Shown one piece after another: positions 28,057-57,478 of a stretch of 64,000 nucleotides of DNA (position 1 is its first letter; each line of letters starts with the position of its first letter). The stretch is from the NCBI RefSeq assembly GCF_041248615.1, contig NZ_CP158426.1. One strand, 5' to 3'. Made by a program: the position numbers and the translations under genes. Under the pieces are notes generated by a model. That model made no database searches and was not told the origin of the DNA. It saw only the letters and a program-made list of their open reading frames with translations. The stretch is from Escherichia coli. GTDB lineage: Bacteria > Pseudomonadota > Gammaproteobacteria > Enterobacterales > Enterobacteriaceae.

Positions 28057-29373
28057 TTACGCGAATGCCGCCATGCTGGCTTTCATGGTGTACACCTCGA
28101 CCAGCGTGTTGGTGTACTCCTCGAGATAACGGTCGTAGTTGGCGTTATAGGTATCAGTAAGCTGATCGCCTTCGTCCTGAATTTTGCTCATCTGATCGTC
28201 AATGTTCTGCTGGCGCAGGGTGATGATGCCGTTGCTGGAGTCCGTGTAGGTGTTAATCAGGTCGTCCATCTGCGCTACCATGCTGTTGTCGCCAACGAAA
28301 ATAGAGGTCAGACCGTCAGGATTTTTCGCCATTTCGTCGTTGAACTGGTCGGAGTCAATCTGTAAGTGGCCGTGAGAATCGAGGGTGATGCCATAGTCAA
28401 CAATCGACACGCCGTTGTAGCTGGCATGGGCGATGTCATCGAGCTGGTTCGCCAGTGAACTGAGTCCGGCGTCGCCTGCAAATACCCCGGCGCTGGTACT
28501 GTCATCACCGTGAGTGGTTAGCGAATCAACCGTATCGATCAGGGTGTTATAGGCATCGACAAAGGTCTGCACTTTCTCCTGGCTGGCGCTGGAATCTTCG
28601 CTAATGTTAAAGGTAGTGAGGTCGCTGTCAGAATCGCTGACTTCGGTGAAAGTCATGGTGACGCCGGGGATCACATCATCAAACGTATTGCTGCTGTTGG
28701 TGATCGCCGGGCCCGTGGCGCTACCGAGATGAATAATCGCGTCCTGGGCTGAGGAAACAACCGTGGCAACGGGCGCGCTGGTGCTATCGTTGCTGGCATC
28801 ATGCCCCGTTACGCTCACCGAAAACGCGCTCTGCGCCCCGGTGCTATCGGAGGTGAGCATAATGGTGGTGGTGCCGTCGGTTTTCACCAACGCCGCTGAA
28901 ACGCCTGGATTATCATCGGAGTCGTTAATCGCGTTCACCAGTTCGCTGGCATCGATAAAACCGTCGCCGTCACCGTTCTGATCTGCCGCCGACAGATCGA
29001 TATCCATGGTGCTGTCGCCCATCGTCAGTTCAAAAGTACCGGTAGCGGAAAAGGCGTCGTCGCCCATACTGAACGTGGTTTGCTGCCCCTGCGCCAGTTG
29101 CTCAACGAAAAACGAGTAGCTTCCCGCCTGCGCCTGGGAATTGGCGGAAATGGTCGCCGAGTCATTATTGCTGGTGGCGGCAAAAGTCACCGGGCCGTCG
29201 GTATCGCTGTTCAGCGCGTCAACGGCGCTCTGGAAATCGCTTAACGCCGAGCTGAGCGAGTCCAGGCCGCTGCTTTCAGCGTCCAGCTCGGTCTGCTTCT
29301 CCTGCAAATTTGCCGCCTGGGTGGCGACATCCGCATAAGCAATTTCTTGCGCAATGGTTCTTGGGTTAATCAT
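28057..29373 (-). CDS. lafB: Filament cap protein (FliD/HAP2 homologue)
   Basis: 438 aa, conserved N- and C-terminal heptad regions, Ser/Thr/Asp-rich centre. Confidence 0.75.
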   Translation of the reverse strand: MINPRTIAQEIAYADVATQAANLQEKQTELDAESSGLDSLSSALSDFQSAVDALNSDTDGPVTFAATSNNDSATISANSQAQAGSYSFFVEQLAQGQQTTFSMGDDAFSATGTFELTMGDSTMDIDLSAADQNGDGDGFIDASELVNAINDSDDNPGVSAALVKTDGTTTIMLTSDSTGAQSAFSVSVTGHDASNDSTSAPVATVVSSAQDAIIHLGSATGPAITNSSNTFDDVIPGVTMTFTEVSDSDSDLTTFNISEDSSASQEKVQTFVDAYNTLIDTVDSLTTHGDDSTSAGVFAGDAGLSSLANQLDDIAHASYNGVSIVDYGITLDSHGHLQIDSDQFNDEMAKNPDGLTSIFVGDNSMVAQMDDLINTYTDSSNGIITLRQQNIDDQMSKIQDEGDQLTDTYNANYDRYLEEYTNTLVEVYTMKASMAAFA

Positions 29374-29404
29374 TGATGACTCCGGGTAACGATGTCAGGT
29401 TAAT

Positions 29405-29420
29405 GGCAAAAGGCGTGCCA
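29405..29420 (-). promoter_or_regulatory. Sigma-54 promoter (-24/-12) for lafB operon
   Basis: Reverse strand TGGCAC-GCCTT-TTGCC, perfect GG-N10-GC spacing, ~32 bp upstream of lafB start. Confidence 0.6.
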
Positions 29421-29506
29421 ATATTTTTTATGTGAAAAATCAATAGATTGAAAAACAGGCGGAAATGGTGTTTCCGGTCTGGCGGAAAAAAGCCTGCCGC
29501 TGAAAG

Positions 29507-29567
29507 CACAACACCGCCTGCAGGCGGTGTTGTTCGTGGCCGGATAAGGCGTTTACGCCGCATCGGC
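29507..29567. terminator. Perfect 13-bp-stem palindrome plus REP element downstream of lafA
   Basis: acaacaccgcctg/caggcggtgttgt followed by gccggataaggcgtttacgccgcatcggc. Confidence 0.55.
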
Positions 29568-35368: not shown

Positions 35369-35668
35369 TCATTTATGCTTCGGCGATAACTGCTTCACAA
35401 TCATCGCCGCGATCCCAATCCCGTGCTGCTGCGCTAGGGTGTTACACAACTCATCGTCATAAAACCCCTGCATCATGCGCACCGAATCGCTGTTAAATGG
35501 GTTATCTTTCGAATCAAACAACTCGTTGGTTTTACGCATCTCTTTGAGCATGTTGCGTAAAAAAATCGCCTCAAACTGTTCCGCGGCCTGCCTGATATCA
35601 TTGGCCTGAACCTTCGGCCCCATTAACGCATCGCTGCCGTCAATCCCGCCACTGGCATTCACTTTCAT
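35369..35668 (-). CDS. lfgJ: FlgJ-like rod-binding protein (N-terminal domain only)
   Basis: 99 aa with rod-binding motif (AAEQFEAIFLRNMLKEMR); no muramidase domain. Confidence 0.7.
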   Translation of the reverse strand: MKVNASGGIDGSDALMGPKVQANDIRQAAEQFEAIFLRNMLKEMRKTNELFDSKDNPFNSDSVRMMQGFYDDELCNTLAQQHGIGIAAMIVKQLSPKHK

Positions 35669-36783
35669 CAGATCACCTCCAGGTCGGCATCCAGCGCGCC
35701 CGCTTCATGCAGCGCCTGCAAAATCGACATAATGTCGTCCGGCGTCGCGCCTAAACTGTTCAGCGCATTGACCAGCGTTTTCAGGCTGCTCGACTCCGGC
35801 AAACTCACCACGCCAGGGCGCGCATGATTCACCGCGATATTACTCTGCGGCGTTACCGCCGTGCGCCCGCCCGCAAAGGCATTCGGCTGGCTGACGTTGC
35901 TGGTTTCGTTAATCGAAACGGTCAAACTACCGTGCGACACCGCCGCCGCGTGTAGCGCAACGCCATCGCCCATCACCACCGTGCCGGTACGCGAGTTAAA
36001 CACCACGCGAGCGCGGATTTTCTCCGCCTGCACCTGCACATCGTCCAGTTGCGACATAAACGCCACCCGCGCACCGGGGCTGGTAGGCGCGCGCACGGTG
36101 ACGTTGGTGGAACTCTGCGCCGTGGCAATGCCGCCAAACGAGGCGTTGATCGCCGCTGCAATATTATTGGCATCTTTAAACGACGGGCGTTTCAGATTGA
36201 GCGTGATGGTATCGCCCATCTGAAAATCGCTGGGGATCTCACGCTCCACCGTTGCGCCGTTGGGAATTAACCCGGCGGTCGGCGTGTTAACCGTCACGCT
36301 GGAACCGCTGGCCCCGGTGGCGTTCATCCCGCCCACCACCACGCTGCCCTGCGCGAGGGCATAAACTTCGCCATCCGCGCCGTGCAACTGCGTCAGCAAC
36401 AAAGTGCCGCCACGAATACTTTTCGCATCGCCAATCGACGAAACGGTGACATCAATGGTCTGCCCGCGCGAGTACATCGGCGGCAGCGTGGCGCTCACCG
36501 CCACCGCGGCGACGTTTTTCACCTTCGGGTCGATTTTATTCGGCAACTGCACGCCAAACTGGCGCAGCATATTGGTGATGGTCTGGTTAGTGAATTTGAC
36601 CTGGTTTTTATCGCCCGTACCGTCGAGGCCTACCACCAGGCTGTAGCCCACCAGTTGGTTTTCACGCACGCCCTGTACGTTGACCAACGACTCCAGCGAT
36701 TGCGCCAGCGCCACACCGGGCAGCGCCAGGCTTACGGCGATCGCTGCGGCCTTTATCCAGTTTTGCATTGCACTCTCCGGCAT
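35668..36783 (-). CDS. lfgI: P-ring protein FlgI homologue
   Basis: 371 aa, signal peptide, conserved [27 protein letters not shown]. Confidence 0.9.
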
Positions 36784-37448
36784 TAAATCGGGAACAGAGG
36801 ATGGTTAAACAGCCGCGTCAGCCAGCCTGCGGCGTTGGCGTCGCTTAACGCGCCGCGTCCGGCATAGGAGATACGGGCGTCGGCGATCCGCTGGGAGGAA
36901 ACCGAGTTGTCGTTCTGAATATCGTCGGCGCGTACCAGGCCGCTTAAGCGGATGTACTCATCGCCCTGGTTGAGGGTCAGCCATTTTTCGCCGCGAATTT
37001 CCAGGATGCCGTTGGGCTGCACCGCATGGACGGAAACGGTGATCTCCCCGCGCAGGCTGTTCTGCTGCTGGGAAGTGGCGCTGCCGTCAAAGTCGCGGTT
37101 GGCATCGATGGAGCCGGAAAGCTTATCTTTGGTGTGACCAAAAATGGTCGGTGCGCCGATGTCGACGGTGTTGTTTTTACCGAAGTTGGTTTTCGCCTGT
37201 TTGCTCGACTGGGTGGATTCTTCGAGGATCACCGTCAGGATATCGCCCACGCGGTAAGCCCGCCGATCGGCGGTGAGCGACCAGTTGTAGCCGGTTTCAA
37301 ACACGCCCCCGGCACGCCCGTCTGCCGGAGGCGGTGCTTCGGTTTTCGGTGGCGCAAAGTATGCGTCGTCTTTTTTGACCAGAATGGCCTGCGATTCACA
37401 CCCGCTAAGCAGGGGAAGCAGCGCCACCAGCCAGAGATAATTTTTCAC
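36783..37448 (-). CDS. lfgH: L-ring lipoprotein FlgH homologue (start reassigned to GTG at 37448)
   Basis: Lipobox LLSGC; the first 25 codons of the ORF-track call are encoded by a REP element and are likely not translated. Confidence 0.8.
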
Positions 37449-37485
37449 GTTCTGCCTGTTTAAATACAGTGAGTTATGCGCTTTT

Positions 37486-37523
37486 GTAGGTCGGATAAGA
37501 CGCGTCAGCGTCGCATCCGACAT
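37486..37523. repeat. REP element between lfgG and lfgH
   Basis: gtaggtcggataagacgcgtcagcgtcgcatccgacat. Confidence 0.6.
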
Positions 37524-37530
37524 TTCGGCC

Positions 37531-38316
37531 TTACAGCGTCTGGCTGATGTACTGCAACATATCGTCCGCCGCCGACACCATTTTGGCGTTCATCTCGTAA
37601 GCGCGTTGCACCGTAATCATCGCCACCATTTCGTTGACGATATCCACGTTCGAGCCTTCCAGCGCATTGTCCTGCAAGGTGCCAAGCCCATCTTCGCCCG
37701 GTACGCCTTCGGTCGGCTGACCGCTGGCAGCGGTTTCCAGATAGAGGTTGTCGCCTTCAGCGGAAAGCCCCGCCGGGTTGGCGAAGTTCACCAGCGTCAG
37801 TTGCCCTAACTCAGTCACGTCGCTGTCGCCGGGTAAGATCGCTGTCACCGTGCCGTCCTCACCAAACGCAACATTCGTCGCCCCCGCCGGAACGTCGATT
37901 TCCGGCTGTAACGGCAAGCCTTGCGAGTTGGTCAGCACGCCGTCGGCGTTCACCTGCAAGTTGCCGTCGCGGGTATAGGCGATATCGCCGTTGGCCTTTT
38001 GCACCTGCAAAAACCCCTGCCCCATAATGGCGACATTCATCGCGTTGTCGGTGGTTTCGACGTTGCCTTCGGTGAAGGTTTTCTGAGTGCCAACAATGCG
38101 CACGCCGCTACCGAATTGCAGCCCGGTCGGCATGATGTTGTTCTGGTCGAGCATCGCGCCCGGCGCTTCCTGGGTCTGGTAGAACAGATCCTGAAACATC
38201 ACCCGGTCGCGCTTGAAGCCGGTGGTGTTAACGTTGGCGATGTTGTTGGCAATCGCGCTCATTTCAGCATCCTGCGCCGAGAGGCCGGTTTTGCTGATCC
38301 ATAATGCTGCGTTCAT
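37531..38316 (-). CDS. lfgG: Distal rod protein FlgG homologue
   Basis: 261 aa, conserved rod N-terminus (SKTGLSAQDAEMSAIANNIANVNTTGFKRD) and C-terminus. Confidence 0.9.
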   Translation of the reverse strand: MNAALWISKTGLSAQDAEMSAIANNIANVNTTGFKRDRVMFQDLFYQTQEAPGAMLDQNNIMPTGLQFGSGVRIVGTQKTFTEGNVETTDNAMNVAIMGQGFLQVQKANGDIAYTRDGNLQVNADGVLTNSQGLPLQPEIDVPAGATNVAFGEDGTVTAILPGDSDVTELGQLTLVNFANPAGLSAEGDNLYLETAASGQPTEGVPGEDGLGTLQDNALEGSNVDIVNEMVAMITVQRAYEMNAKMVSAADDMLQYISQTL

Positions 38317-38342
38317 GGTGGTTTATTCCCTGGTGTCTGTTA

Positions 38343-39080
38343 TCACGAGCCGCGCAATAAGCGGTTGCCCGCGTCGCTGATATCTTCGGCGGTTTTCATC
38401 ATCTTGATCTGCGCTTCAAACTGGCGGTTCATGGCGATGGACGACATCATCTCGCTCACCGCCGAGACGTTACTGCCCTCCAGAAAACCGCCGCTAACTT
38501 TGATGTTTTCATCACGCTGGGCCGGAACGCCGTCGGCAGTTATCAGCATCCCTTCAGGATTTTTCGCCAGGTTAGCGACAGGAATATCCACCAGCTTCAG
38601 GCGGTCGATATCCATGGTTGCAGTCACGTCGCCGTCATCGGGCGTCACCGACAGCGTGCCGTCGCTGCCAAACGAAGCAATGGCGTTCGGCGGCAGAATG
38701 ATCGGGCCGTTATCCCCCAGCACCAGATTGCCGTCGATGGTCAGTTGCCCCTGGTCGTCCTGCTGAATGTTGCCGTTGCGGGTATACACTTCGTTGCCGT
38801 TTTTATCCTGCACCGCAATGTAACCCGCGCCCTGAATCGCCACGTCCAGCGGGCGTTCGGTTTTCTCCGCTACACCCGTGCTGTCGTTCACGCCGCTGGC
38901 CCCTTCCTGCGCCATATAGCGCGTGTCGAAGCCGCCGCCTTTCACCTTGTCGTTGGTCGCCATCGCCATGTCGGCGCGAAAACCGTTGGTGTTGACGTTC
39001 GCCAGGTTGTTGGCGCTAATCTGCTGCTCGTACAGGGTCTGAGAAGCACCGCTCAGGGCGGTATAAATCAGGCGGTCCAT
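38343..39080 (-). CDS. lfgF: Proximal rod protein FlgF homologue
   Basis: 245 aa rod family. Confidence 0.85.
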   Translation of the reverse strand: MDRLIYTALSGASQTLYEQQISANNLANVNTNGFRADMAMATNDKVKGGGFDTRYMAQEGASGVNDSTGVAEKTERPLDVAIQGAGYIAVQDKNGNEVYTRNGNIQQDDQGQLTIDGNLVLGDNGPIILPPNAIASFGSDGTLSVTPDDGDVTATMDIDRLKLVDIPVANLAKNPEGMLITADGVPAQRDENIKVSGGFLEGSNVSAVSEMMSSIAMNRQFEAQIKMMKTAEDISDAGNRLLRGS

Positions 39081-40282
39081 TACATTGCCTGGAACAGCGC
39101 GTCATCGAGCTGCGTGCTGGTGGCGATAACTTTGGTGTTGGCCTGATAGTTACGCTGGGCGGTCATCAGGTTGACCAGTTCGCTGGTGATATCGACGTTA
39201 GAGCTTTCGAGCACGCCCGACGATAGCGTGCCGCAGGTGCCGGAGCCGGGAACGCCAATCAGCGGGGTGCCGGATTCCCCGGTTTGTACCCACGCGGTGC
39301 CGCTCACCGCTTCGAGTCCGTTTTCATTCGGGAAAGTCGCCAGCACCACCTGGCCCTGCAACATGCGCTCGCCGTTGCTGTAGGTGGCGTAAACTTTGCC
39401 ATCGTCATCGACCTGCACACCGTTTTGCGTTGCGGAGGCGTAGCCGTTGGCGGCGTTGGTGGTGACCGAAAATTCAGAGCCGTATTGCGTACAGGTGGAG
39501 TAATCGACGGTTAAGTCGATGGGTGCGGCGGCGTCGGTCTGAAACTCAATGGTCTGTGGCGTGGTTGGCGAGGTCAGCTTCCCGGTGTTCGGGTCGAAGG
39601 TTAATGTCGTCGCCGGAACGCCAGTCTGCTGCTGACCGTCGAAGGTGTACTGCACTTCCCAGGTGTTGTCGCTGGTTTTGGTGAAATACTGGCATACCGA
39701 GTGTTCGTTACCTAATGAGTCATATACCGTGGTGGTGTAGCTGTCGGTATACGAGCTGCTGTTGGTCGCGTCGAACGGTACGGTTGTACGGTCTATAGCC
39801 GCATCGCTGGCATCGAAGTTAGCGGTAAAGGTCAGGCTGCTGCTGGCCTGCGCCGGGATATTGCCGGTTTTGATCTGGATATCGGTGACCGTACCGGTTT
39901 GCAGAGTGCCCGTGTCATCGACCGGATAACCCTGTAAATAAGCGCCCGAGGCGTTGACAATATAGCCGTTTTTGTCGGTTTCAAACGATCCGGCGCGGGT
40001 ATAAGAAATGTTGCCCGCGCTGTCGCAGGTAACAAAAAAGCCGTCGTTGTTAATCGCCAGATCCAGCGCGTTACCGGTGGAGACCAGCGAACCGCCGCGC
40101 GAAATACTTTGCGCGGTGCCTGCCACGCTGACGCCCATCGCCTGACTTCCGGCATACATGGCTGAAAACTGGGTGGTCATCGACTTATAGCCTACCGTTC
40201 CGGCGTTGGCGATGTTGTTACTGATCCCGTCGAGCTGTTCGTTAACGGCATTCAGCCCCGTTGCGGCAATTTCATAACTCAT
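39080..40282 (-). CDS. lfgE: Hook protein FlgE homologue
   Basis: 400 aa, conserved hook termini. Confidence 0.85.
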   Translation of the reverse strand: MSYEIAATGLNAVNEQLDGISNNIANAGTVGYKSMTTQFSAMYAGSQAMGVSVAGTAQSISRGGSLVSTGNALDLAINNDGFFVTCDSAGNISYTRAGSFETDKNGYIVNASGAYLQGYPVDDTGTLQTGTVTDIQIKTGNIPAQASSSLTFTANFDASDAAIDRTTVPFDATNSSSYTDSYTTTVYDSLGNEHSVCQYFTKTSDNTWEVQYTFDGQQQTGVPATTLTFDPNTGKLTSPTTPQTIEFQTDAAAPIDLTVDYSTCTQYGSEFSVTTNAANGYASATQNGVQVDDDGKVYATYSNGERMLQGQVVLATFPNENGLEAVSGTAWVQTGESGTPLIGVPGSGTCGTLSSGVLESSNVDITSELVNLMTAQRNYQANTKVIATSTQLDDALFQAM

Positions 40283-40328
40283 TGTTTCTTCCTGTTAATT
40301 CAAATTTTGACAGCGTGCCCGTTGTTTT

Positions 40329-40409
40329 GCCGGATGCGGCGTGAACGCCTTATCCGGCCTACAAAACCATGCAGTTTCATGTAGGCCTGATAAGCGAAGC
40401 GCATCAGGC
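40329..40409. repeat. BIME: two inverted REP elements between lfgD and lfgE; first unit identical to the one at 35270
   Basis: gccggatgcggcgtgaacgccttatccggcctaca ... gtaggcctgataagcgaagcgcatcaggc. Confidence 0.7.
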
Positions 40410-40425
40410 AATTTGGCACCGGACA

Positions 40426-41139
40426 TCACGCCACATCACTGTCGGCATCGGGTACGCCAAACTGGCTAATCATGGTGAACGGCACTTCGCCCACGCCTGC
40501 AACATTGAGCACCGGAGAGCTGCCGTCGAGCGGGATGCGCACATCTTCCACTTCGCCGGAGACTTCAATCGGCACCTCTTCTTCCCCGGTGTTGGTGACC
40601 ACCGAGACGTCGTAATCGCCCGGCGGGATACCGTAATCCGCCGGATTAATCGAGAAATCGACCTGGCCTGGCCCGACGGACGAACTGCCTTCCGGGATCA
40701 GCGACACCGTATAGTCATCGCCTGCGGCATCGGTAAAGTGGAGATCGGCGGTGGTACAGGCGTCGTCAAGCGTGGCGCGACCATTAATGGTCTGGTCGCT
40801 CACCTGCAAGGCGGTGGTCTGCACCATAATGTCGTCACCCACCAGGTTGCCGAGCGCCATCACCTGAATGTTGCTCATCAGCACCGCGTTGGTGTTGGCC
40901 TGCACACTCATCTCTTCCATCATCGCCACCTGCGCCATCGAAGAAAGCTGGTCGATATATTCGGTGGCGTCAGTCGGGTCGGTCGGGTCCTGGTTTTGGA
41001 TCTCAGCGACAAACAGCGTCAGGAAAGTATCAACGGGCGAGCTATCGCTGCTACTTTGCGTGTCGCTGGCCGCCACGTTGTTGCTTTCCGCCGTGGCGGT
41101 CGGCTGCGGCGATTGCGCATTCAGCGCCAGGGTATTCAT
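40426..41139 (-). CDS. lfgD: Hook capping/scaffold protein FlgD homologue
   Basis: 237 aa, conserved TFLTLFVAEIQNQDPTDP. Confidence 0.8.
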   Translation of the reverse strand: MNTLALNAQSPQPTATAESNNVAASDTQSSSDSSPVDTFLTLFVAEIQNQDPTDPTDATEYIDQLSSMAQVAMMEEMSVQANTNAVLMSNIQVMALGNLVGDDIMVQTTALQVSDQTINGRATLDDACTTADLHFTDAAGDDYTVSLIPEGSSSVGPGQVDFSINPADYGIPPGDYDVSVVTNTGEEEVPIEVSGEVEDVRIPLDGSSPVLNVAGVGEVPFTMISQFGVPDADSDVA

Positions 41140-41570
41140 CAGGCTTCTCCCAGTTTCAGCAGGCTTTGCTGCATACTTTTCACGTTGTTGAGCACATCGA
41201 CATTGGTTTCAAAATCGCGCGAGGCCGACATCATGTCCGCCATCTGTTCCACCACGTTGACGTCGGGATACCAGACATCCCCGTTAGCATCGGCGAGCGG
41301 CGAATGCGGTTCATAGCGTTTCACCGCCCCGCCGGTTTGCAGCACGTCCTGCACCTGCACGCTGGCACCATCAATGGCATGGCGATGCGTTCCCGCCAGC
41401 AAGCTGTGGTGATACACCGCCGCAAACACCGGGCTGCGCGCTTTATACGCCTGCGCCTCGCTGCCGGCAGGTGCATTGGCATTCGCCAGGTTACTGGCAA
41501 CGGTATTCAGACGTAGCGTTTGCGCCGTCATCGCCGAGCCGGAAATCTGATAGATATCAGTAAATGACAT
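41139..41570 (-). CDS. lfgC: Proximal rod protein FlgC homologue (intact)
   Basis: 143 aa, conserved rod termini. Confidence 0.85.
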   Translation of the reverse strand: MSFTDIYQISGSAMTAQTLRLNTVASNLANANAPAGSEAQAYKARSPVFAAVYHHSLLAGTHRHAIDGASVQVQDVLQTGGAVKRYEPHSPLADANGDVWYPDVNVVEQMADMMSASRDFETNVDVLNNVKSMQQSLLKLGEA

Positions 41571-41572
41571 GC

Positions 41573-41908
41573 TTATTTCCCTTCAATGGCCTCTCTGATG
41601 CCGCTGATTTGCAGATTCAGAAAGGTCAGACTGCTTTGATAATCCATACTATTTTGTGAAAACCGCGCCTGTTCGCTGTTTAGTTCCACGGTGTTGCCAT
41701 CTTCCGACGGCTGCATCGGCACGCGGTACTGGACATCCACCGCCGCGTTATTTGCCCGTTGCATCTCCCTGGCAAAATCAATATCTTTAGCCTTGAAATT
41801 TGGCGTATCGACGTTCGCCAGATTCGCAGTCAGTAGCTCGGTCCTCTCAAGACGTAACTTCACTGCCTGCGGATGCACTCCCAATGCCTGTTGAAAACTG
41901 ATCCCCAT
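41573..41908 (-). CDS. lfgB: Proximal rod protein FlgB homologue (start at internal Met MGISFQQ)
   Basis: Rod N-terminal motif LTANLANVDTPNFKAKD; ORF-track start would place the start codon inside the sigma-54 promoter footprint. Confidence 0.8.
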   Translation of the reverse strand: MGISFQQALGVHPQAVKLRLERTELLTANLANVDTPNFKAKDIDFAREMQRANNAAVDVQYRVPMQPSEDGNTVELNSEQARFSQNSMDYQSSLTFLNLQISGIREAIEGK

Positions 41909-41945
41909 TTCCTGCGTCACTCCTGCTTCAATCCGCATACGCTAA

Positions 41946-41960
41946 GCAATCGCCGTGCCA
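41946..41960 (-). promoter_or_regulatory. Sigma-54 promoter for lfgB-L operon
   Basis: Reverse strand TGGCAC-GGCGA-TTGC, perfect consensus. Confidence 0.6.
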
Positions 41961-41989
41961 TTTTTTAAGTCACTGATGAGAAAGGGTTT

Positions 41990-42727
41990 ATGAGTTTTCA
42001 ATTTTGCAGGCGGAAGTTGTTCTTCCTCCTGGTGCTGGCCTTACCGGGCTACGCCGCCGTCCACCCCGTGCAACACAGCGCGCGGGAACAAGTCAACGCC
42101 CAGGTGCTGAATGCCGCGAGCCAGGAAATTGAATCGATGGCGCAGCAACGGCAGTGGCATGACTATCGCTACACCTTTAAGGTCTACATTCCCTCGCAGA
42201 TTGCGACCGCCGCCCCCTGTGCGACAACACCCGGCGTTACGCTCACTTCGCCTGCGGACATCGCCCTCAACCGGATGAACTTCACCGTCAGTTGCCCGCA
42301 AAGCTGGCAGATGAACGTGGCGGTGCGCCCGGATGTACTGGTGCCCGTGGTGATGACAAAGTCACTGGTTGCCCGCGATACGCCGCTCACGGCGAATGAT
42401 GTGGAGTTGAAGCCCTACAACTTCAGCGCCCAGCGGCGGGATGTGTTGATGGAGCTCGATGACGCAATTGGTTTAAGCAGTAAGCACGCGTTGCAACCGG
42501 GCAGGCCCATCACCAAAGAAGAGCTGGTTTCGCCAGTGCTGGTCGAACGCGATCAGCCGGTGATGATTGTTTACCAGAGCGCGGGGATCACCGCCTCGAT
42601 GCCCGGCGTGGCGCTGAAAAATGGCCGCAAAGGCGAGATGGTGAAAGTACGTAACGCAAGCAGCCAGCGGGTCATCAGCGCGATGGTGGCAGAAAGCGGC
42701 GTGGTGACGACGGTAAGCGCGGAGTAA
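41990..42727 (+). CDS. lfgA: P-ring assembly chaperone FlgA homologue
   Basis: 245 aa, signal peptide, divergent from lfgB. Confidence 0.7.
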   Translation: MSFQFCRRKLFFLLVLALPGYAAVHPVQHSAREQVNAQVLNAASQEIESMAQQRQWHDYRYTFKVYIPSQIATAAPCATTPGVTLTSPADIALNRMNFTVSCPQSWQMNVAVRPDVLVPVVMTKSLVARDTPLTANDVELKPYNFSAQRRDVLMELDDAIGLSSKHALQPGRPITKEELVSPVLVERDQPVMIVYQSAGITASMPGVALKNGRKGEMVKVRNASSQRVISAMVAESGVVTTVSAE

Positions 42728-42914
42728 TTTGCTGTAATACCGCGTAGCATATGTATGACTAGCTCCCAATATTCTGACTTTCTGACAAATTTCATTGTGT
42801 ATTTTGGATAATTATTGAGCACTCAATCACTACTGTTTAAATATCCAGATGATAACTATTTCATCTGGGTCAAATGAGTGATATTGTATCACCAATAAGA
42901 CCTACGGGGGTGCT

Positions 42915-44339
42915 ATGTCTGAATTTGAATTGCTCGTGAAAGATCTTCTTTTAAAATCAGAAGAAGACGAGAAAAAGCGACAAGAAAAAGATCGAGAATT
43001 AATTTCAAAGGTTCTTGAAATCTATGATCAAAAATATGTTGCAGAACTCCTACGAAAAGTAGGAAAAAATGAATGGAGCAGAGAAACACTTAACCGTTGG
43101 ATAAATGGTAAGTGTAACCCTAAACAATTAACTTCTGCTGAGGAAACTTTACTTCGAAAGATGCTCCCAGAACCTCCCGAACATCATCCTAACTATACAT
43201 TTCGTTTTATTGATTTATTCGCAGGGATTGGTGGTATTCGTAAAGGCTTCGAAAATATTGGTGGGCAGTGTGTTTTTACTAGCGAATGGAATAAAGAAGC
43301 GGTAAGAACCTACAAAGCTAATTGGTTTAATGATGAACTAAATCATAAATTTAATCTTGATATACGAGAAGTCACTTTAAGTGATAGAGATGATGTTTCC
43401 GAAATGGAAGCCTATAATCATATAGACAAAAATATTCCAGATCATGATGTCCTTCTGGCCGGTTTTCCATGTCAACCCTTTAGTCTGGCTGGGGTAAGCA
43501 AGAAAAATTCTCTGGGGCGTGCACATGGTTTTGAATGTGAGGCACAAGGAACACTATTTTTTGATGTCGCTCGAATTATTAAATCAAAAAAACCAGCTAT
43601 TTTTGTGCTTGAGAATGTGAAGAACCTTAAAAGTCATGATAAAGGTAAGACTTTTAAAGTCATCATGGAAACACTCAATGAATTAGGGTATGAAGTCGCC
43701 GATGCTGGTGTGACTGGCTCAGATGATCCTAAAATTATAGATGGAAAACATTTTTTACCCCAACATCGTGAGCGTATAGTGTTGGTAGGATTTCGTAGGG
43801 ATCTAAATATTCACAAGGATTTCACGTTACGAAATATTAACCGCTTTTACCCTCAAAACAGGCCAACATTTGGTGAATTATTAGATCATGATGTTGACGA
43901 CAAATATATTTTGACTCCAAGGTTATGGGAATATCTTTACAATTATGCAAAAAAACATGCAGCAAAAGGAAATGGATTTGGTTTTGGTTTAGTGGATCCT
44001 AAAAATCCAGATAGTATCGCACGAACGCTGTCTGCTCGTTACCATAAAGATGGCTCTGAAATACTGATCGATCGTGGCTGGGATAAGGCTGTCGGTGAAA
44101 TCGATTTTAGTAATCCAGCGAATCAAGAGAATCGACCAAGAAGACTGACACCTCATGAATGTGCCAGGTTAATGGGTTTTGAAAAACCAGGGGGAAGACC
44201 TTTTAGAATACCTGTATCAGATACTCAAGCTTATAGACAATTTGGGAACTCAGTTGTTGTGCCAGTATTTGAAGCTGTAGCAAGATTACTAGAACCGTAC
44301 ATACAAAAGGCTGTCAGCATGCAAGTTATTAACGATTAA
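42915..44339 (+). CDS. DNA cytosine-5 methyltransferase, M.EcoRII/Dcm family (predicted CCWGG specificity)
   Basis: Motif I FAGIGG, motif [10 protein letters not shown], motif VI ENV; near full-length match to recalled M.EcoRII/Dcm; AT-rich. Confidence 0.9.
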
Positions 44340-44363
44340 TAATAATTAACTTTCACTATTGTG

Positions 44364-44386
44364 AGGCCTTTTTTATTAAAGGCCTC
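44364..44386. terminator. Bidirectional hairpin between convergent methylase and endonuclease genes
   Basis: gaggcc-ttttttattaaa-ggcctc. Confidence 0.55.
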
Positions 44387-44426
44387 TAAATATATAATCA
44401 TAAGTTATTATAAGTATACTTTTATA

Positions 44427-45632
44427 TTATACAAAATCTTCATACAGCGTTATTAACTGTGTGATAAAACCCTCTAACGTTAATAATCCCTCCCTGATTT
44501 CCTCCGGATATTTTTTATGAAGAGGGGAAGGTACAACCAAGGTGACACCTTCAGCTCTCATTTCGTTAAATTGAGCAACTGAGACACCCTCTTGTAAGGT
44601 AAACAAATATATTTTGTTGATTTTATTTGCTTCATTGAGTGCCTGACGCCACCGATCCTTACATGTTGTTTTTACAGCAAGCATACGGAGTTTTTCTCTT
44701 GGAAAGTGATCATCATGGTAAGCTGCCGCTGATGGAAAAAGAAAATCGGGTTTCTTTTTTCCTTCAGTAATACATTGAGTAGCAAAATGATGCAGTCCAT
44801 GCTCAATAAAAATTTGCTCAAGATGTAGCTCCAGTGATTTCCCGGCTCGAGATTTTCTTCGATTACTAACAGAGTTAGCCATAGCTATAAAATCATCTAC
44901 AGAACCAAACCCTTGACGGATGATGTCCAGTACGTGAATTTCTTCAACCATTAGAAAGAGATCATATTCAATACGGCGGCGTTCTAAAAGTTGGTCATCT
45001 GGACTGGTTACGCCTGTTGGGTAATAACCCGCAGCATATTGAATAATCTCTAAGCCAGAAGGAAAGCTATGTTTCCAGCTTTCCGGAATAACATATTCCT
45101 TTTGAGAGATTTTTGGCCTTGATGCGAGTACACCAAGTATTTCACTGGCAGGCCCAAACATTAAAGTTCCAGGAATGATCTCCCCAATAGCTGATTCCAG
45201 TACATCCTCTTCTTCTGGGCTAACACAAACCCATACATCAACACTTTTGCTGTCTCTCCCTGGCTCATGTTCAAACGCAAGCACAGACAAAGCACCTGTA
45301 TTTTCCGGATCCTGTAGGGGACTGCCAGCCCCCCACCGAGTGATGCGTTTTTCATTTCTTGTTTGCCCGAAATACTTATTATTGTAGTAAATAGCGCGAA
45401 CCTCACTGTCTACACATTCATGAGAGGAATAAGTTGCGCGCAATAAAACCGAAGGATTTTTTTCTGACGTATGATCTATAGATGGGAAAAGTTCAGCGAC
45501 GATACCAGAAGGGATATATACCCCCACTTGATGCCCTCCTGTTGCACCAGTGTCGTTTGCTGAAAGACGTTTAATATAGAGATAGTTGTTACCACCGACC
45601 TTATCAAGCAGCCAATCTTGTAATCCTGACAT
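44427..45632 (-). CDS. Type IIE restriction endonuclease, EcoRII family
   Basis: 401 aa; N-terminus YIKRLSANDTGATGGHQVG and catalytic domain match recalled R.EcoRII closely. Confidence 0.9.
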   Translation of the reverse strand: MSGLQDWLLDKVGGNNYLYIKRLSANDTGATGGHQVGVYIPSGIVAELFPSIDHTSEKNPSVLLRATYSSHECVDSEVRAIYYNNKYFGQTRNEKRITRWGAGSPLQDPENTGALSVLAFEHEPGRDSKSVDVWVCVSPEEEDVLESAIGEIIPGTLMFGPASEILGVLASRPKISQKEYVIPESWKHSFPSGLEIIQYAAGYYPTGVTSPDDQLLERRRIEYDLFLMVEEIHVLDIIRQGFGSVDDFIAMANSVSNRRKSRAGKSLELHLEQIFIEHGLHHFATQCITEGKKKPDFLFPSAAAYHDDHFPREKLRMLAVKTTCKDRWRQALNEANKINKIYLFTLQEGVSVAQFNEMRAEGVTLVVPSPLHKKYPEEIREGLLTLEGFITQLITLYEDFV

Positions 45633-46521: not shown

Positions 46522-46597
46522 CGCGAATACCTTCCCCATAGCGGAAATGGATTTTCCGCCTGATTCACAATCCTTTGTTTTTGATTATAAAAATTCC

Positions 46598-46613
46598 CGG
46601 CACGCTTATTGCA
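46598..46613 (+). promoter_or_regulatory. Sigma-54 promoter upstream of the unknown 311-aa gene and transferase gene
   Basis: CGGCAC-GCTTA-TTGCA with correct GG-N10-GC spacing; lies inside the ORF-track N-terminus, implying the real start is at 46648. Confidence 0.5.
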
Positions 46614-46647: not shown

Positions 46648-47580
46648 ATGAGTTTTATTGAATGTTACGAACCGGAATACGTGCGCAATTTTATGACGCA
46701 ATATCCCGATTCGCCTTTGTACATCCGCAAGGTGTGGAAAAACGAGATTCGCCAGAGCCTGATGCTGACAGAGCCAGAAAGCTGCGAAGCGGTGCTCAAC
46801 GATGCCAGGGCCTTTGATTTACAGCTCACCTACCGCCCGGCGGAAGATAATGCCGCAGAACTCTCCGCGCGCGATGCGATAGTAAACCAGGTCATTTTGA
46901 GCACCCTTACGCTCCCCGATTTACCCCCGGAGCTTTCACTGTACGCCGTCGGGATTTTGCTCTCCCGCGCCAGCAAAATGCCGGGCAGAGACGGAGATAT
47001 TCTTGCCCGCTTGACGACGCTGCCACAGGCGCTGGCCGATCATGCACAAAAAGGCACGCTACAGGCACAGTTCGCCCAGCTGCCGCCCGTGCCACAGCTG
47101 GCGCGCCAGTTGATGACGCTGCTCGGCAGTTGTGCGTTTGACTGGTCGATTCTGCCGGAAAGCCCGCGCAAAACTTCGCTGCCGTTGCAGATGCCTTTGC
47201 TGGCGCTACATGACGCCAACAGCGAAGCCCTGTTACAACAGCAGCTTCAGGCACAGTGGCAAACCACCTGGCAACAGCATTTTGCCACCGCGCCCTGGAT
47301 GATGCGTAACTGGCTGATTTACCGCGTTTACCATGAGGTGATTGGGCAGGCAGACGGAGCAGATTATTGCCCGCTGGTGTGCGATTTTTATCTTATCCGC
47401 ACGTTAATCAGTTTATGGACGCTGGATGGTTCTCCGCTGCGACAGGAGGATATTTTCGCCCTCTTTGCCATGTTTGAACGCTGGCGAGCCAGTGAAAATG
47501 CTGTGCTGATTCGCCAACAAATTCAGGCTGAACGTTCCGCAGATCCCCTGCTTTATGCGTTTTCACTGCTGTCTTGCTAA
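46648..47580 (+). CDS. Hypothetical protein (311 aa), no recognisable domain; start at MSFIECYEPE
   Basis: ORF with RBS ggaag 7 nt upstream; sits between flgN homologue and the large transferase gene. Confidence 0.5.
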   Translation: MSFIECYEPEYVRNFMTQYPDSPLYIRKVWKNEIRQSLMLTEPESCEAVLNDARAFDLQLTYRPAEDNAAELSARDAIVNQVILSTLTLPDLPPELSLYAVGILLSRASKMPGRDGDILARLTTLPQALADHAQKGTLQAQFAQLPPVPQLARQLMTLLGSCAFDWSILPESPRKTSLPLQMPLLALHDANSEALLQQQLQAQWQTTWQQHFATAPWMMRNWLIYRVYHEVIGQADGADYCPLVCDFYLIRTLISLWTLDGSPLRQEDIFALFAMFERWRASENAVLIRQQIQAERSADPLLYAFSLLSC

Positions 47581-56119: not shown

Positions 56120-57106
56120 TCAGGAGAAAACTTCGATACCTTGCTTGCGCATGGAGGCCAGTCGATAGCGCAGTGCGCGCGGGGTAATGCCTAACAGGTC
56201 GGCAATTTTGCTGCGGTTGCCCTGATATTTACGCATCAGGTCGGCGATATATTGATACTGGGCGCTACGTCCGGCCTGGCCTAAATCGCTGGTTTCCGCA
56301 ACAGATACGGAGGGCTGAACAGGCCATTGCAGTTCACTGTGATCGGCAACGTCTATTTCCGGCAGGCCTAAGGCATCCGGGAAAATCACGCCGTCGCGAT
56401 TTAAAATCATTCCACGCTGAATGGCGTTCTCCAGCTGGCGCACGTTGCCGGGCCAGCGGTAATTGAGCAGCGCCCGGCGAGTAGATTCTGAAAGGGTGAT
56501 ATTTTTCACCAGCACTGTGGAGTATTTTTTAATAAATGACTCTGCCAGCGGGATAATATCGTTCAGGCGTTCACGCAGCGGCGGCATGGTAATAGGAATA
56601 ACCGCCAGACGATAATAGAGATCTTCACGAAAACGCCCGGCGGCGACTTCCTGCTCAAGGTTTTTATTGGTGCAGGCAATCAGGCGAAAATTGAGTTTAA
56701 TTTGTCGGTTACTGCCTAATCGCTCAACCTGCTGTTCCTGCAATACGCGTAATATTTTGGCCTGTAGCGCCAGCGGCATATCGCCAATTTCATCGAGCAA
56801 TAAGGTGCCGTTATTCGCCAGTTCCATTTTTCCTGGCACGCTGGCAATTGCGCCGGTAAATGCGCCTTTGTCGTAGCCAAATAAGGTAGATTCCAGCATG
56901 TTTTCCGGGATCGCCGCGCAGTTCACGCCGATATAGGGCGCGTTATCATTTTCACCAAAGGCTACGGTGTGAATATATTTCGCCACGCATTCTTTGCCCG
57001 CGCCGGTTTCGCCCTGAATGAGCACCGGCACGTTAAATGCGGCGACACGCTTTGCCAGAGTAAAAGCGTTAATGCTGGAAGCGGCAGTTGCAATAAGTTC
57101 AGACAT
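56120..57106 (-). CDS. lafK: Sigma-54-dependent transcriptional activator lacking an N-terminal receiver domain
   Basis: AAA+ domain with Walker A (GETGAGKE) and GAFTGA motif, C-terminal HTH; only 328 aa, in-frame stop upstream. Confidence 0.8.
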   Translation of the reverse strand: MSELIATAASSINAFTLAKRVAAFNVPVLIQGETGAGKECVAKYIHTVAFGENDNAPYIGVNCAAIPENMLESTLFGYDKGAFTGAIASVPGKMELANNGTLLLDEIGDMPLALQAKILRVLQEQQVERLGSNRQIKLNFRLIACTNKNLEQEVAAGRFREDLYYRLAVIPITMPPLRERLNDIIPLAESFIKKYSTVLVKNITLSESTRRALLNYRWPGNVRQLENAIQRGMILNRDGVIFPDALGLPEIDVADHSELQWPVQPSVSVAETSDLGQAGRSAQYQYIADLMRKYQGNRSKIADLLGITPRALRYRLASMRKQGIEVFS

Positions 57107-57260
57107 AGGGTGAACGATATAAGTAGCGACAGAAAACAGGATGTTCTGAAGCGTATCACCGGCGGGATTAACAAGTTCGAATTAAACGATAATAAAAATA
57201 TTATTTGATGGTAAACAATTAGTTAGATATTAATACTGTTAATTTGGACATCTGTGATGC

Positions 57261-57300
57261 CCCCTCACCCTAACCCTCTCCCCGGATGGGGCGAGGGGAC
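57261..57300. repeat. GC-rich palindromic repeat unit
   Basis: cccctcaccctaaccctctccccggatggggcgaggggac; inverted copy at 63737-63762. Confidence 0.6.
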
Positions 57301-57478
57301 AGACCGCAGACTGATTGGCGAAAATCACTCCCATTAAGCAATTAATCGATTAATTATTTTTTCATCCTATTAATAATTTGCCCCTTTCACTCCCCCTCTA
57401 TTTAATACCTCACCTTGTGTCACTGCCTGATTTGCGTGCACAAAATCGCCCATACCATTACAGCAGAGAAAGTAAGCC

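Follow-up and report, generated by a model that had tools for sequence, protein, structure and literature searches.

A deeply conserved sigma-54 promoter and a candidate LafK enhancer upstream of the Flag-2 rod/hook operon of Escherichia coli

Flagellar sigma-54 promoters and the Flag-2 locus

Stewart and McCarter reportedly found in 2003 that the RpoN-dependent promoters of the lateral flagellar genes of Vibrio parahaemolyticus are activated by LafK. The lateral system of this species serves as the model for Flag-2. In it LafK is the sigma-54-dependent activator of class II genes (PMC3930126; PMC4481668), RpoN sites have been located at flgB2 (VPA0264) and lafB (VPA1550), and binding at flgB2 has been detected by EMSA (Gu et al., 2022; PMC9817140). 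The Flag-2 (lateral-flagella-like) genes of Escherichia coli resemble flgB2/flgB_L and lafB of V. parahaemolyticus in gene orthology, operon layout and location of the -24/-12 element, and the promoter upstream of lfgB (PlfgB) occupies a position orthologous to that of the RpoN-bound flgB_L promoter. The two systems differ in the -12 element, which reads TTGT in Vibrio and TTGC in E. coli, and it is in Vibrio that regulation by surface sensing is established.

Polar flagellar systems, such as those of Vibrio cholerae (FlrA/FlrC) and Pseudomonas aeruginosa (FleQ/FleR), likewise place flgB-type rod/hook operons under sigma-54 and an activator of the NtrC family, and in polar sigma-54 hierarchies the sigma-28 gene belongs to a lower tier (PMC3930126). 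Their activators carry receiver or FleQ N-terminal domains and use other binding sites where these are known, whereas LafK lacks an N-terminal regulatory domain. The Flag-1 flgA-flgB region of E. coli and Salmonella shares with Flag-2 the divergent arrangement of flgA and flgBCDEFGHIJ around a short common control region, but the Flag-1 class 2 promoters use sigma-70 together with FlhD4C2 (PMC4481668). Unlike its Flag-1 counterpart, the Flag-2 spacer carries a sigma-54 promoter, and a scan for sigma-70 promoters in it found none.

E. coli PCN033 has been described as carrying consensus sigma-54 sites before both lfgB and lafB (Liu et al., 2015, BMC Genomics; PMC4578781), and together with the intact sigma-54 activation domain of LafK in that strain they were argued to show a functional Flag-2 system (PMC4578781). 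The locus considered here is the same, with the same two promoters and the same TGGCAC-N5-TTGC consensus; the PCN033 report dealt with a different strain and contained no start-site reasoning, comparative analysis or enhancer (PMC4578781).

The window, by which is meant the whole stretch of 64,000 nucleotides of the E. coli chromosome that was analysed, contains a Flag-2 locus. Over positions 41000-43000 the sequence equals that of NZ_OW967178.1 (100% identity), and the region is present in 1279 of 5426 complete E. coli genomes. According to the RefSeq annotation of NZ_OW967178.1, the locus adjoins dinB and its genes run as follows:

lafU-motA-sigma28-...-lafA, flgL...flgB, flgA, flgM, flgN, glycosyltransferase region
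then fliJ...fliE, a 'sigma-54 interaction domain' protein (LafK), fliM...flhA

This content and order match Flag-2 (lfhAB-lfiRQPNM-lafK-lfiEFGHIJ, lfgNMABCDEFGHIJKL and the laf genes) and agree with its published architecture (PMC6993521). At 42915-45632 the usual lfgA-lfgM-lfgN run is split: between lfgA and lfgM lie a plus-strand gene for a DNA cytosine methyltransferase of 474 aa and a minus-strand gene for a type II restriction endonuclease of 401 aa. This insertion is already known, since EcoRII/Dcm genes of equal sizes (401 and 474 aa) have been reported in the Flag-2 loci of 21 Escherichia strains (PMC6993521).

The sigma-54 promoter, its activator and the lfgA-lfgB spacer

The features between the rod/hook genes and the divergent lfgA are:

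35369..41570, minus strand: lfgC, D, E, F, G, H, I and J, for rod, hook cap, hook, L/P rings and rod-binding protein (RefSeq and ORF list)
41573..41908, minus strand: lfgB, Flag-2 FlgB rod protein of 111 aa, beginning MGISFQQ (RefSeq WP_000512950.1, Pfam, homologues, structures)
41920..41924, minus strand: Shine-Dalgarno sequence AGGAG, 11 nt before ATG 41908 (16S 3'-end duplex)
41932..41936, minus strand: predicted transcription start, about 41934 (-24/-12 spacing rule)
41946..41960, minus strand: PlfgB core, TGGCAC-N5-TTGC, matching the consensus at 10/10 positions, then T
41961..41989, minus strand: conserved spacer from the lfgA start codon to the -24 element, CCCTTTCTCATCAGTGACTTAAAAAA (alignment)
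41990..42727, plus strand: lfgA, divergent P-ring chaperone gene (ORF list, RefSeq, Pfam)

The minus strand reads TGGCACGGCGATTGC (TGGCAC-GGCGA-TTGC) from 41960 to 41946, with the GG of the -24 element at 41959-41958 and the GC of the -12 element at 41947-41946, so that the doublets are exactly 10 nt apart. TTGC lies 37 nt from ATG 41908 on the correct strand. Perfect TGGCAC-N5-TTGC sites occur twice in the 64 kb, against 0.25 expected, and two perfect matches were found in 1 of 100 shuffled windows; both sites stand directly upstream of flagellar operon starts, those of lfgB and lafB. From the tight gene spacing we infer that lfgB and lfgCDEFGHIJ form one operon served by PlfgB.

For comparison, 80 loci with genes for LfgB relatives were collected from other species, covering Escherichia, Citrobacter, Yersinia, Pantoea, Erwinia, Rosenbergiella and Tatumella and reaching out to Pseudomonas flexibilis and Methylomonas; in each, the 110 nt before the conserved lfgB start were scanned. 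Over the ten specified bases the best match was 10/10 in 41 loci, 9/10 in 32 and 8/10 in 7. TGGCA[CT]-N5-TTGC at 9/10 or better is thus found in 73 of the 80, the 9/10 cases being almost all TGGCAT, compared with 0.56% of control windows from the same loci (n = 1600). The element stands 30-82 nt from the conserved start, and E. coli strains themselves have either TGGCAC or TGGCAT at PlfgB. A homologue search that started from the P. flexibilis protein returned Pseudomonas-type relatives and no Vibrio or Aeromonas sequences.

At sigma-54 promoters the closed complex requires an AAA+ activator, whose upstream binding site is expected about 70-150 bp from the start. The sigma factor gene itself, rpoN, is a core E. 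coli gene located outside the window, while a candidate activator is encoded within it:

56120..57106, minus strand: lafK, sigma-54 activator of 328 aa (RefSeq, Pfam and motif check)

The sigma-54 interaction domain of LafK (Sigma54_activat, 216.7 bits) begins at residue 6, and the protein also has an AAA lid, a C-terminal Fis-type HTH (HTH_8), the Walker A motif GETGAGKE and the sigma-54-contacting GAFTGA loop. Judged by these domains and motifs, LafK is encoded intact. It has no receiver domain, as noted previously (PMC3162934), and probably acts by abundance for that reason. LafK is the only sigma-54 activator annotated in the Flag-2 cluster. The AT-rich intergenic region between the divergent lafK and lfiM (57107-57478) is the control region of both operons, and neither a sigma-54 site nor the palindrome described below was found in it. 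The same region contains a GC-rich element, CCCCCTCACCCTAACCCTCTCCCCGGATGGGGCGAGGGG, at about 57250-57310, which we take to be similar to the boxC-type repeats of E. coli.

The exact motif, its conservation in the 80 loci, the intact LafK and the RpoN binding seen by EMSA at the orthologous Vibrio promoter bear out the proposal of the initial annotation that the rod/hook operon has a sigma-54 promoter. On this comparative evidence, the motif at 41960-41946 is a deeply conserved sigma-54 promoter in front of that operon. The distance of 8 bp given earlier between motif and longest open reading frame also holds if the first base of the ATG is counted; otherwise ATG 41938 is 7 nt past the C of TTGC.

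In sigma-54 promoters the C of the GC doublet is at -12 and transcription starts about 12 nt past the GC. This standard spacing predicts a start near 41934 and an lfgB leader of about 26 nt, with ATG 41938 outside the mRNA. Since the predicted start falls within or just after ATG 41938-41936, that codon could not be translated from PlfgB. The earlier suggestion that transcription begins inside the annotated coding sequence agrees with the predicted start near 41934, but the sequence in question is merely the longest open reading frame, and the RefSeq/PGAP annotation already begins at 41908.

The 51-bp intergenic region described initially corresponds in the same way to the interval from 41938 to 41990; with the short start, the true lfgA-lfgB spacer measures 81 bp. 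Its conserved part (41961..41989) contains the ribosome-binding region of lfgA, an A-rich run and a TCA-N5/6-TTA motif, and the distance from the -24 element to the lfgA ATG is only 29 nt. The TCA-N5/6-TTA motif loosely resembles an IHF site, which is mentioned here as a remark because that stretch holds the lfgA start codon in many species. A mini-ORF, ATGAGAAAGGGTTTATGA (MRKGL*), at 41974-41991 overlaps the lfgA start codon. The claim that the spacer must serve the divergent flgA homologue as well found no backing, as a sigma-70 scan, a plus-strand sigma-54 scan and the sigma-28 consensus revealed no promoter facing lfgA near the gene. Should transcription of lfgA begin within or beyond the lfgB leader, the polymerase would have to get past both the sigma-54 closed complex and the candidate enhancer considered next.

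A palindrome shared by the sigma-54 sites of the window

Three sigma-54 sites in the window, PlfgB and the two listed here, are each accompanied by a palindrome:

42012..42026: palindrome GGAAG-N5-CTTCC, candidate LafK enhancer at lfgB (comparative scan)
29406..29420, minus strand: PlafB, second perfect sigma-54 site, 32 nt before the lafB/fliD ATG at 29373 (motif scan)
29461..29475: palindrome GGAAACACCATTTCC in the intergenic DNA just past the lafA terminator, 55 nt upstream of the PlafB -24 element
46598..46612, plus strand: third sigma-54-like site CGGCACGCTTATTGC, 9/10, 35 nt before ATG 46648 (motif scan)
46543..46557: palindrome GGAAATGGATTTTCC, 55 nt upstream of the third sigma-54 site (palindrome scan)

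The DNA upstream of both perfect sigma-54 sites shares GGAAR-N5-YTTCCGCCTG, the extended E. coli form of the palindrome. The window contains five exact copies of GGAA-N7-TTCC, where 1.05 would be expected. Three of them are located 55-66 nt upstream of a sigma-54 -24 element, counted from its T; the other two, at 37889 (in lfgG) and 45085 (in the restriction enzyme gene), lack a good sigma-54 partner and were taken as chance occurrences. At lfgB the palindrome begins 66 nt upstream of the T of TGGCAC, in the first 37 nt of lfgA, where it spans codons 8-13 (R-K-L-F-F-L). Its centre is at about -85 from the predicted start, compared with about -74 at the other two promoters, the two positions being one helical turn apart.

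PlafB is conserved in three other species. In lafB loci outside the sample, from three Citrobacter/Enterobacterales genomes, an exact palindrome was present at -56 or -57 in 3/3, together with TGGCAT-N5-TTGC 30-35 nt before the lafB ATG. Across the lafA-lafB spacer (29366-29563, minus strand) RefSeq places a 65-aa 'hypothetical protein' without a Pfam match (WP_023144374.1). Its frame runs over the PlafB sigma-54 site, the palindrome and the terminator hairpin of lafA, and the gene call is probably spurious.

The third site precedes an open reading frame of 310 aa at 46648 that has no Pfam match and is followed by an 821-aa family-2 glycosyltransferase, downstream of lfgN. The module of palindrome and sigma-54 site after lfgN recurs in 15 other loci with offsets of 55-67, and its position ahead of these two genes suggests that the flagellin-glycosylation region belongs to the LafK/sigma-54 tier. 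A position weight matrix built from the orthologous sigma-54 sites also scored 4286-4305, at the paoB/paoC junction, where TGGCATGAAATTTGA has TTGA for TTGC and spans the paoC start codon; this was rejected as a chance match.

The exact palindrome is present in 67 of 81 lfgB loci, and 11 more have one mismatch (mostly GGAA-N7-TTCA). In most Enterobacterales loci it stands at a fixed distance of 55-68 nt from the -24 element. At lfgB the offset is mostly -66 to -69; Rosenbergiella and Tatumella have -76, and the loci of Pseudomonas, Serpens and Lysobacteraceae about -122. A metagenome scan with a 19-mer of V. parahaemolyticus VPA0264 gave five matches. The flagellar one, contig L086, is a Vibrio-type laf locus in which the exact 19-mer occurs together with a gene for a lateral LfgB; the site ATGGCACGTATCTTGTTTG stands 37 nt before the ATG, and the same GGAA-N7-TTCC palindrome, here GGAAGTTTGGCTTCC, lies at -56. 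Three others (L082, L084 and L085) were read as chance. Contig L086 also has a looser second dyad at 7-23, GGAAGTAAGCACTTTCC (GGAA-N9-TTCC), 44 nt upstream of the exact palindrome; this dyad might serve as another activator site.

The palindrome is most likely the LafK site because of its position, its dyad symmetry, its exclusive association with sigma-54 promoters and the presence of LafK as sole activator of the cluster, whose Fis-type HTH is of a kind that typically reads dyad sites. Position and co-occurrence thus make it a candidate LafK binding site, and probably a genuine one. The literature searched, of which coverage was incomplete, contained no described binding site for LafK. On balance we favour the broader reading that GGAA(R)-N5-(Y)TTCC is an undescribed LafK enhancer, or 'LafK box', that defines a regulon of three promoters and is embedded in lfgA at lfgB.

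It is unlikely, though by no means far-fetched, that the palindrome is instead not a LafK enhancer and encodes the x-K-x-x-F-x of the LfgA signal peptide, or binds another regulator such as LafZ or IHF/Fis. The palindrome at lfgB lies inside the lfgA reading frame in 78 of 78 loci, where an in-frame lfgA start codon precedes it by 16-40 nt (up to 84); save for four counted exceptions the phase is the same. The cluster does encode LafZ, an OmpR-type winged-helix regulator with a Trans_reg_C domain. Given this coding location, part of the conservation at lfgB could be protein-driven. Against this reading, the palindrome recurs in non-coding DNA at PlafB and the third promoter, in the window as in other species, with nearly the same offset from the sigma-54 element, and the difference between offsets of 55 and 66, about one helical turn, is typical of enhancers that depend on the face of the helix. 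Inside lfgA, moreover, nucleotides are fixed while amino acids vary: the first palindrome codon is NGG (R, G, W, V, M or L), and TTC, never TTT, is used for every Phe. This codon pattern argues that the constraint on the palindrome inside lfgA is at the nucleotide rather than the amino-acid level.

The surroundings of the palindrome within lfgA vary between genomes. In many other species the in-frame lfgA ATG is 40 nt before the palindrome, compared with 22 nt here, so the lfgA start may have shifted in the Escherichia/Citrobacter lineage. In E. coli IH5 (NZ_CP168949.1; contig L089, 380-560) a truncated T6SS tssG pseudogene takes the place of lfgA, with a breakpoint about 10 bp upstream of the palindrome, and the palindrome, the sigma-54 promoter and lfgB are all kept intact.

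Flag-2 integrity, the lfgB start and the proposed mechanism

A second alternative accepts the ancestral sigma-54 promoter as genuine and regards it as a relic without present function, Flag-2 being silent in this strain. Flag-2 has often been regarded as cryptic in E. coli, and several E. coli and Yersinia strains have been described as having a non-functional or cryptic system (PMC4481668; PMC4578781), and strain 042 carries a frameshift in lfgC (PMC4578781). The EcoRII/Dcm module separates lfgA from lfgM in the present locus, and the AT-rich region upstream of lafK shows no recognisable activator-dependent promoter. This alternative is nevertheless improbable, as all Flag-2 genes of the identical RefSeq record NZ_OW967178.1 are annotated intact, with zero pseudogene flags, and the Walker A, GAFTGA and HTH features of LafK are complete. 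In addition, the promoter, the half-sites of the palindrome and the Shine-Dalgarno sequence are invariant in five E. coli sequences while the spacer of the palindrome varies, which argues for continuing selection. From the comparative work there is strong phylogenetic evidence for selection on the Flag-2 class II promoters in E. coli, and PlfgB is presumed to be active in this strain.

The initial annotation placed the start of the FlgB homologue at the inner Met (MGISFQQ, 41908), and independent lines of evidence agree. The Shine-Dalgarno duplex at ATG 41908 (-6.9 kcal/mol) equals the median at the conserved start over the 80 loci, with a spacing of 11 nt that is on the long side, while that at ATG 41938 (-2.1 kcal/mol) equals the value at random positions. 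GTG 41920 was considered as another start and rejected, its duplex reaching only -3.3 kcal/mol and its position not being conserved. An alignment of 12 relatives shows the -24/-12 element and GCAGGAGTGA, which is kept in Escherichia and Citrobacter, as conserved, and the stretch with the upstream ATG as the most variable part of the spacer.

At the protein level, nearly all homologues in a database of 5.8 billion proteins span residues 11-121 of the long open reading frame and measure 111-116 aa, as does the dominant E. coli LfgB cluster (629 members, 111 aa). Their N-termini nearly all read M[GSA]I[ST]F, with GTG as the start codon there in many species. As proposed earlier, the inner Met is also the better fit to FlgB N-termini: residue 11 of the long frame aligns with residue 1 of the solved FlgB chain 8z5s_b, and residue 17 with residue 7 of Salmonella FlgB (7bin_Q). 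LfgB matches Pfam Flg_bb_rod (PF00460) at 22.2 bits against a cutoff of 20.7, and RefSeq uses the start at 41908 in every E. coli record examined. By these comparisons, the short form of LfgB (111 aa, ATG 41908) is the correct one.

That the 121-aa frame from ATG 41938 is real, transcribed from inside lfgA with the sigma-54-like motif as part of its 5' UTR, can be dismissed as very improbable: the in-frame ATG at -30 (a 10-codon extension) is conserved in the sampled E. coli strains and Pseudocitrobacter, and a transcript reading through from a promoter farther upstream might in principle give the longer protein, but the codon has no ribosome-binding site, no upstream sigma-70-like promoter appeared in the scan, the extension is restricted to Escherichia and Pseudocitrobacter and is missing or out of frame in Citrobacter, about 70 other species and Escherichia sp. 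MOD1-EC7003 (where a 4-bp indel destroys the frame), and the few database gene calls that exceed 111-116 aa have unrelated extensions with Val (GTG) at the conserved Met position.

We consider it highly probable that, as a whole, the rod/hook operon is expressed from PlfgB through sigma-54 and LafK, with a start near 41934 and translation from ATG 41908. RNA polymerase with sigma-54 (RpoN) would transcribe lfgBCDEFGHIJ from the -24/-12 core at 41960-41946, and LafK, encoded in the same cluster, would be the AAA+ activator at PlfgB. LafK would bind the GGAA-N7-TTCC palindrome about 85 bp upstream of the start, within the first lfgA codons, and reach the polymerase through DNA looping. Transcription is predicted to begin near 41934, leaving ATG 41938-41936 unusable, and translation from ATG 41908 behind AGGAG would yield the 111-aa LfgB. 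A common module, consisting of the palindrome, a spacer of 40-51 nt, TGGCAC-N5-TTGC, 32-37 nt and an ATG, would also drive the lafB operon (which extends from the filament cap gene to the sigma-28 and motor genes) and the glycosyltransferase operon, and the three promoters would correspond to the LafK/sigma-54 'class II' tier known from the lateral flagella of V. parahaemolyticus.

The sigma-54 site and the short start of lfgB are not new, since the former was published for PCN033 and the latter is implemented in RefSeq; the start codon serves mainly as a sanity check, showing that longest-ORF tracks over-extend lfgB. The addition made here is modest and consists of the conserved palindrome as a candidate LafK box, located partly in the lfgA coding sequence. 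If this reading is true, LafK would control a three-promoter regulon in E. coli, comprising the lfgB operon, the lafB operon and the glycosyltransferase operon after lfgN. An enhancer in lfgA codons 8-13 would place 15 bp under dual constraint, as the n-region of a signal peptide and as an activator site, and LafK and the sigma-54 holoenzyme would sit astride the lfgA start, so that lfgA transcription would run through them. With this candidate site, a few point mutations could be enough to dissect how lateral flagella are regulated. Conservation of the promoter within E. coli also bears on whether Flag-2, whose locus is carried by about a quarter of complete genomes, is cryptic.
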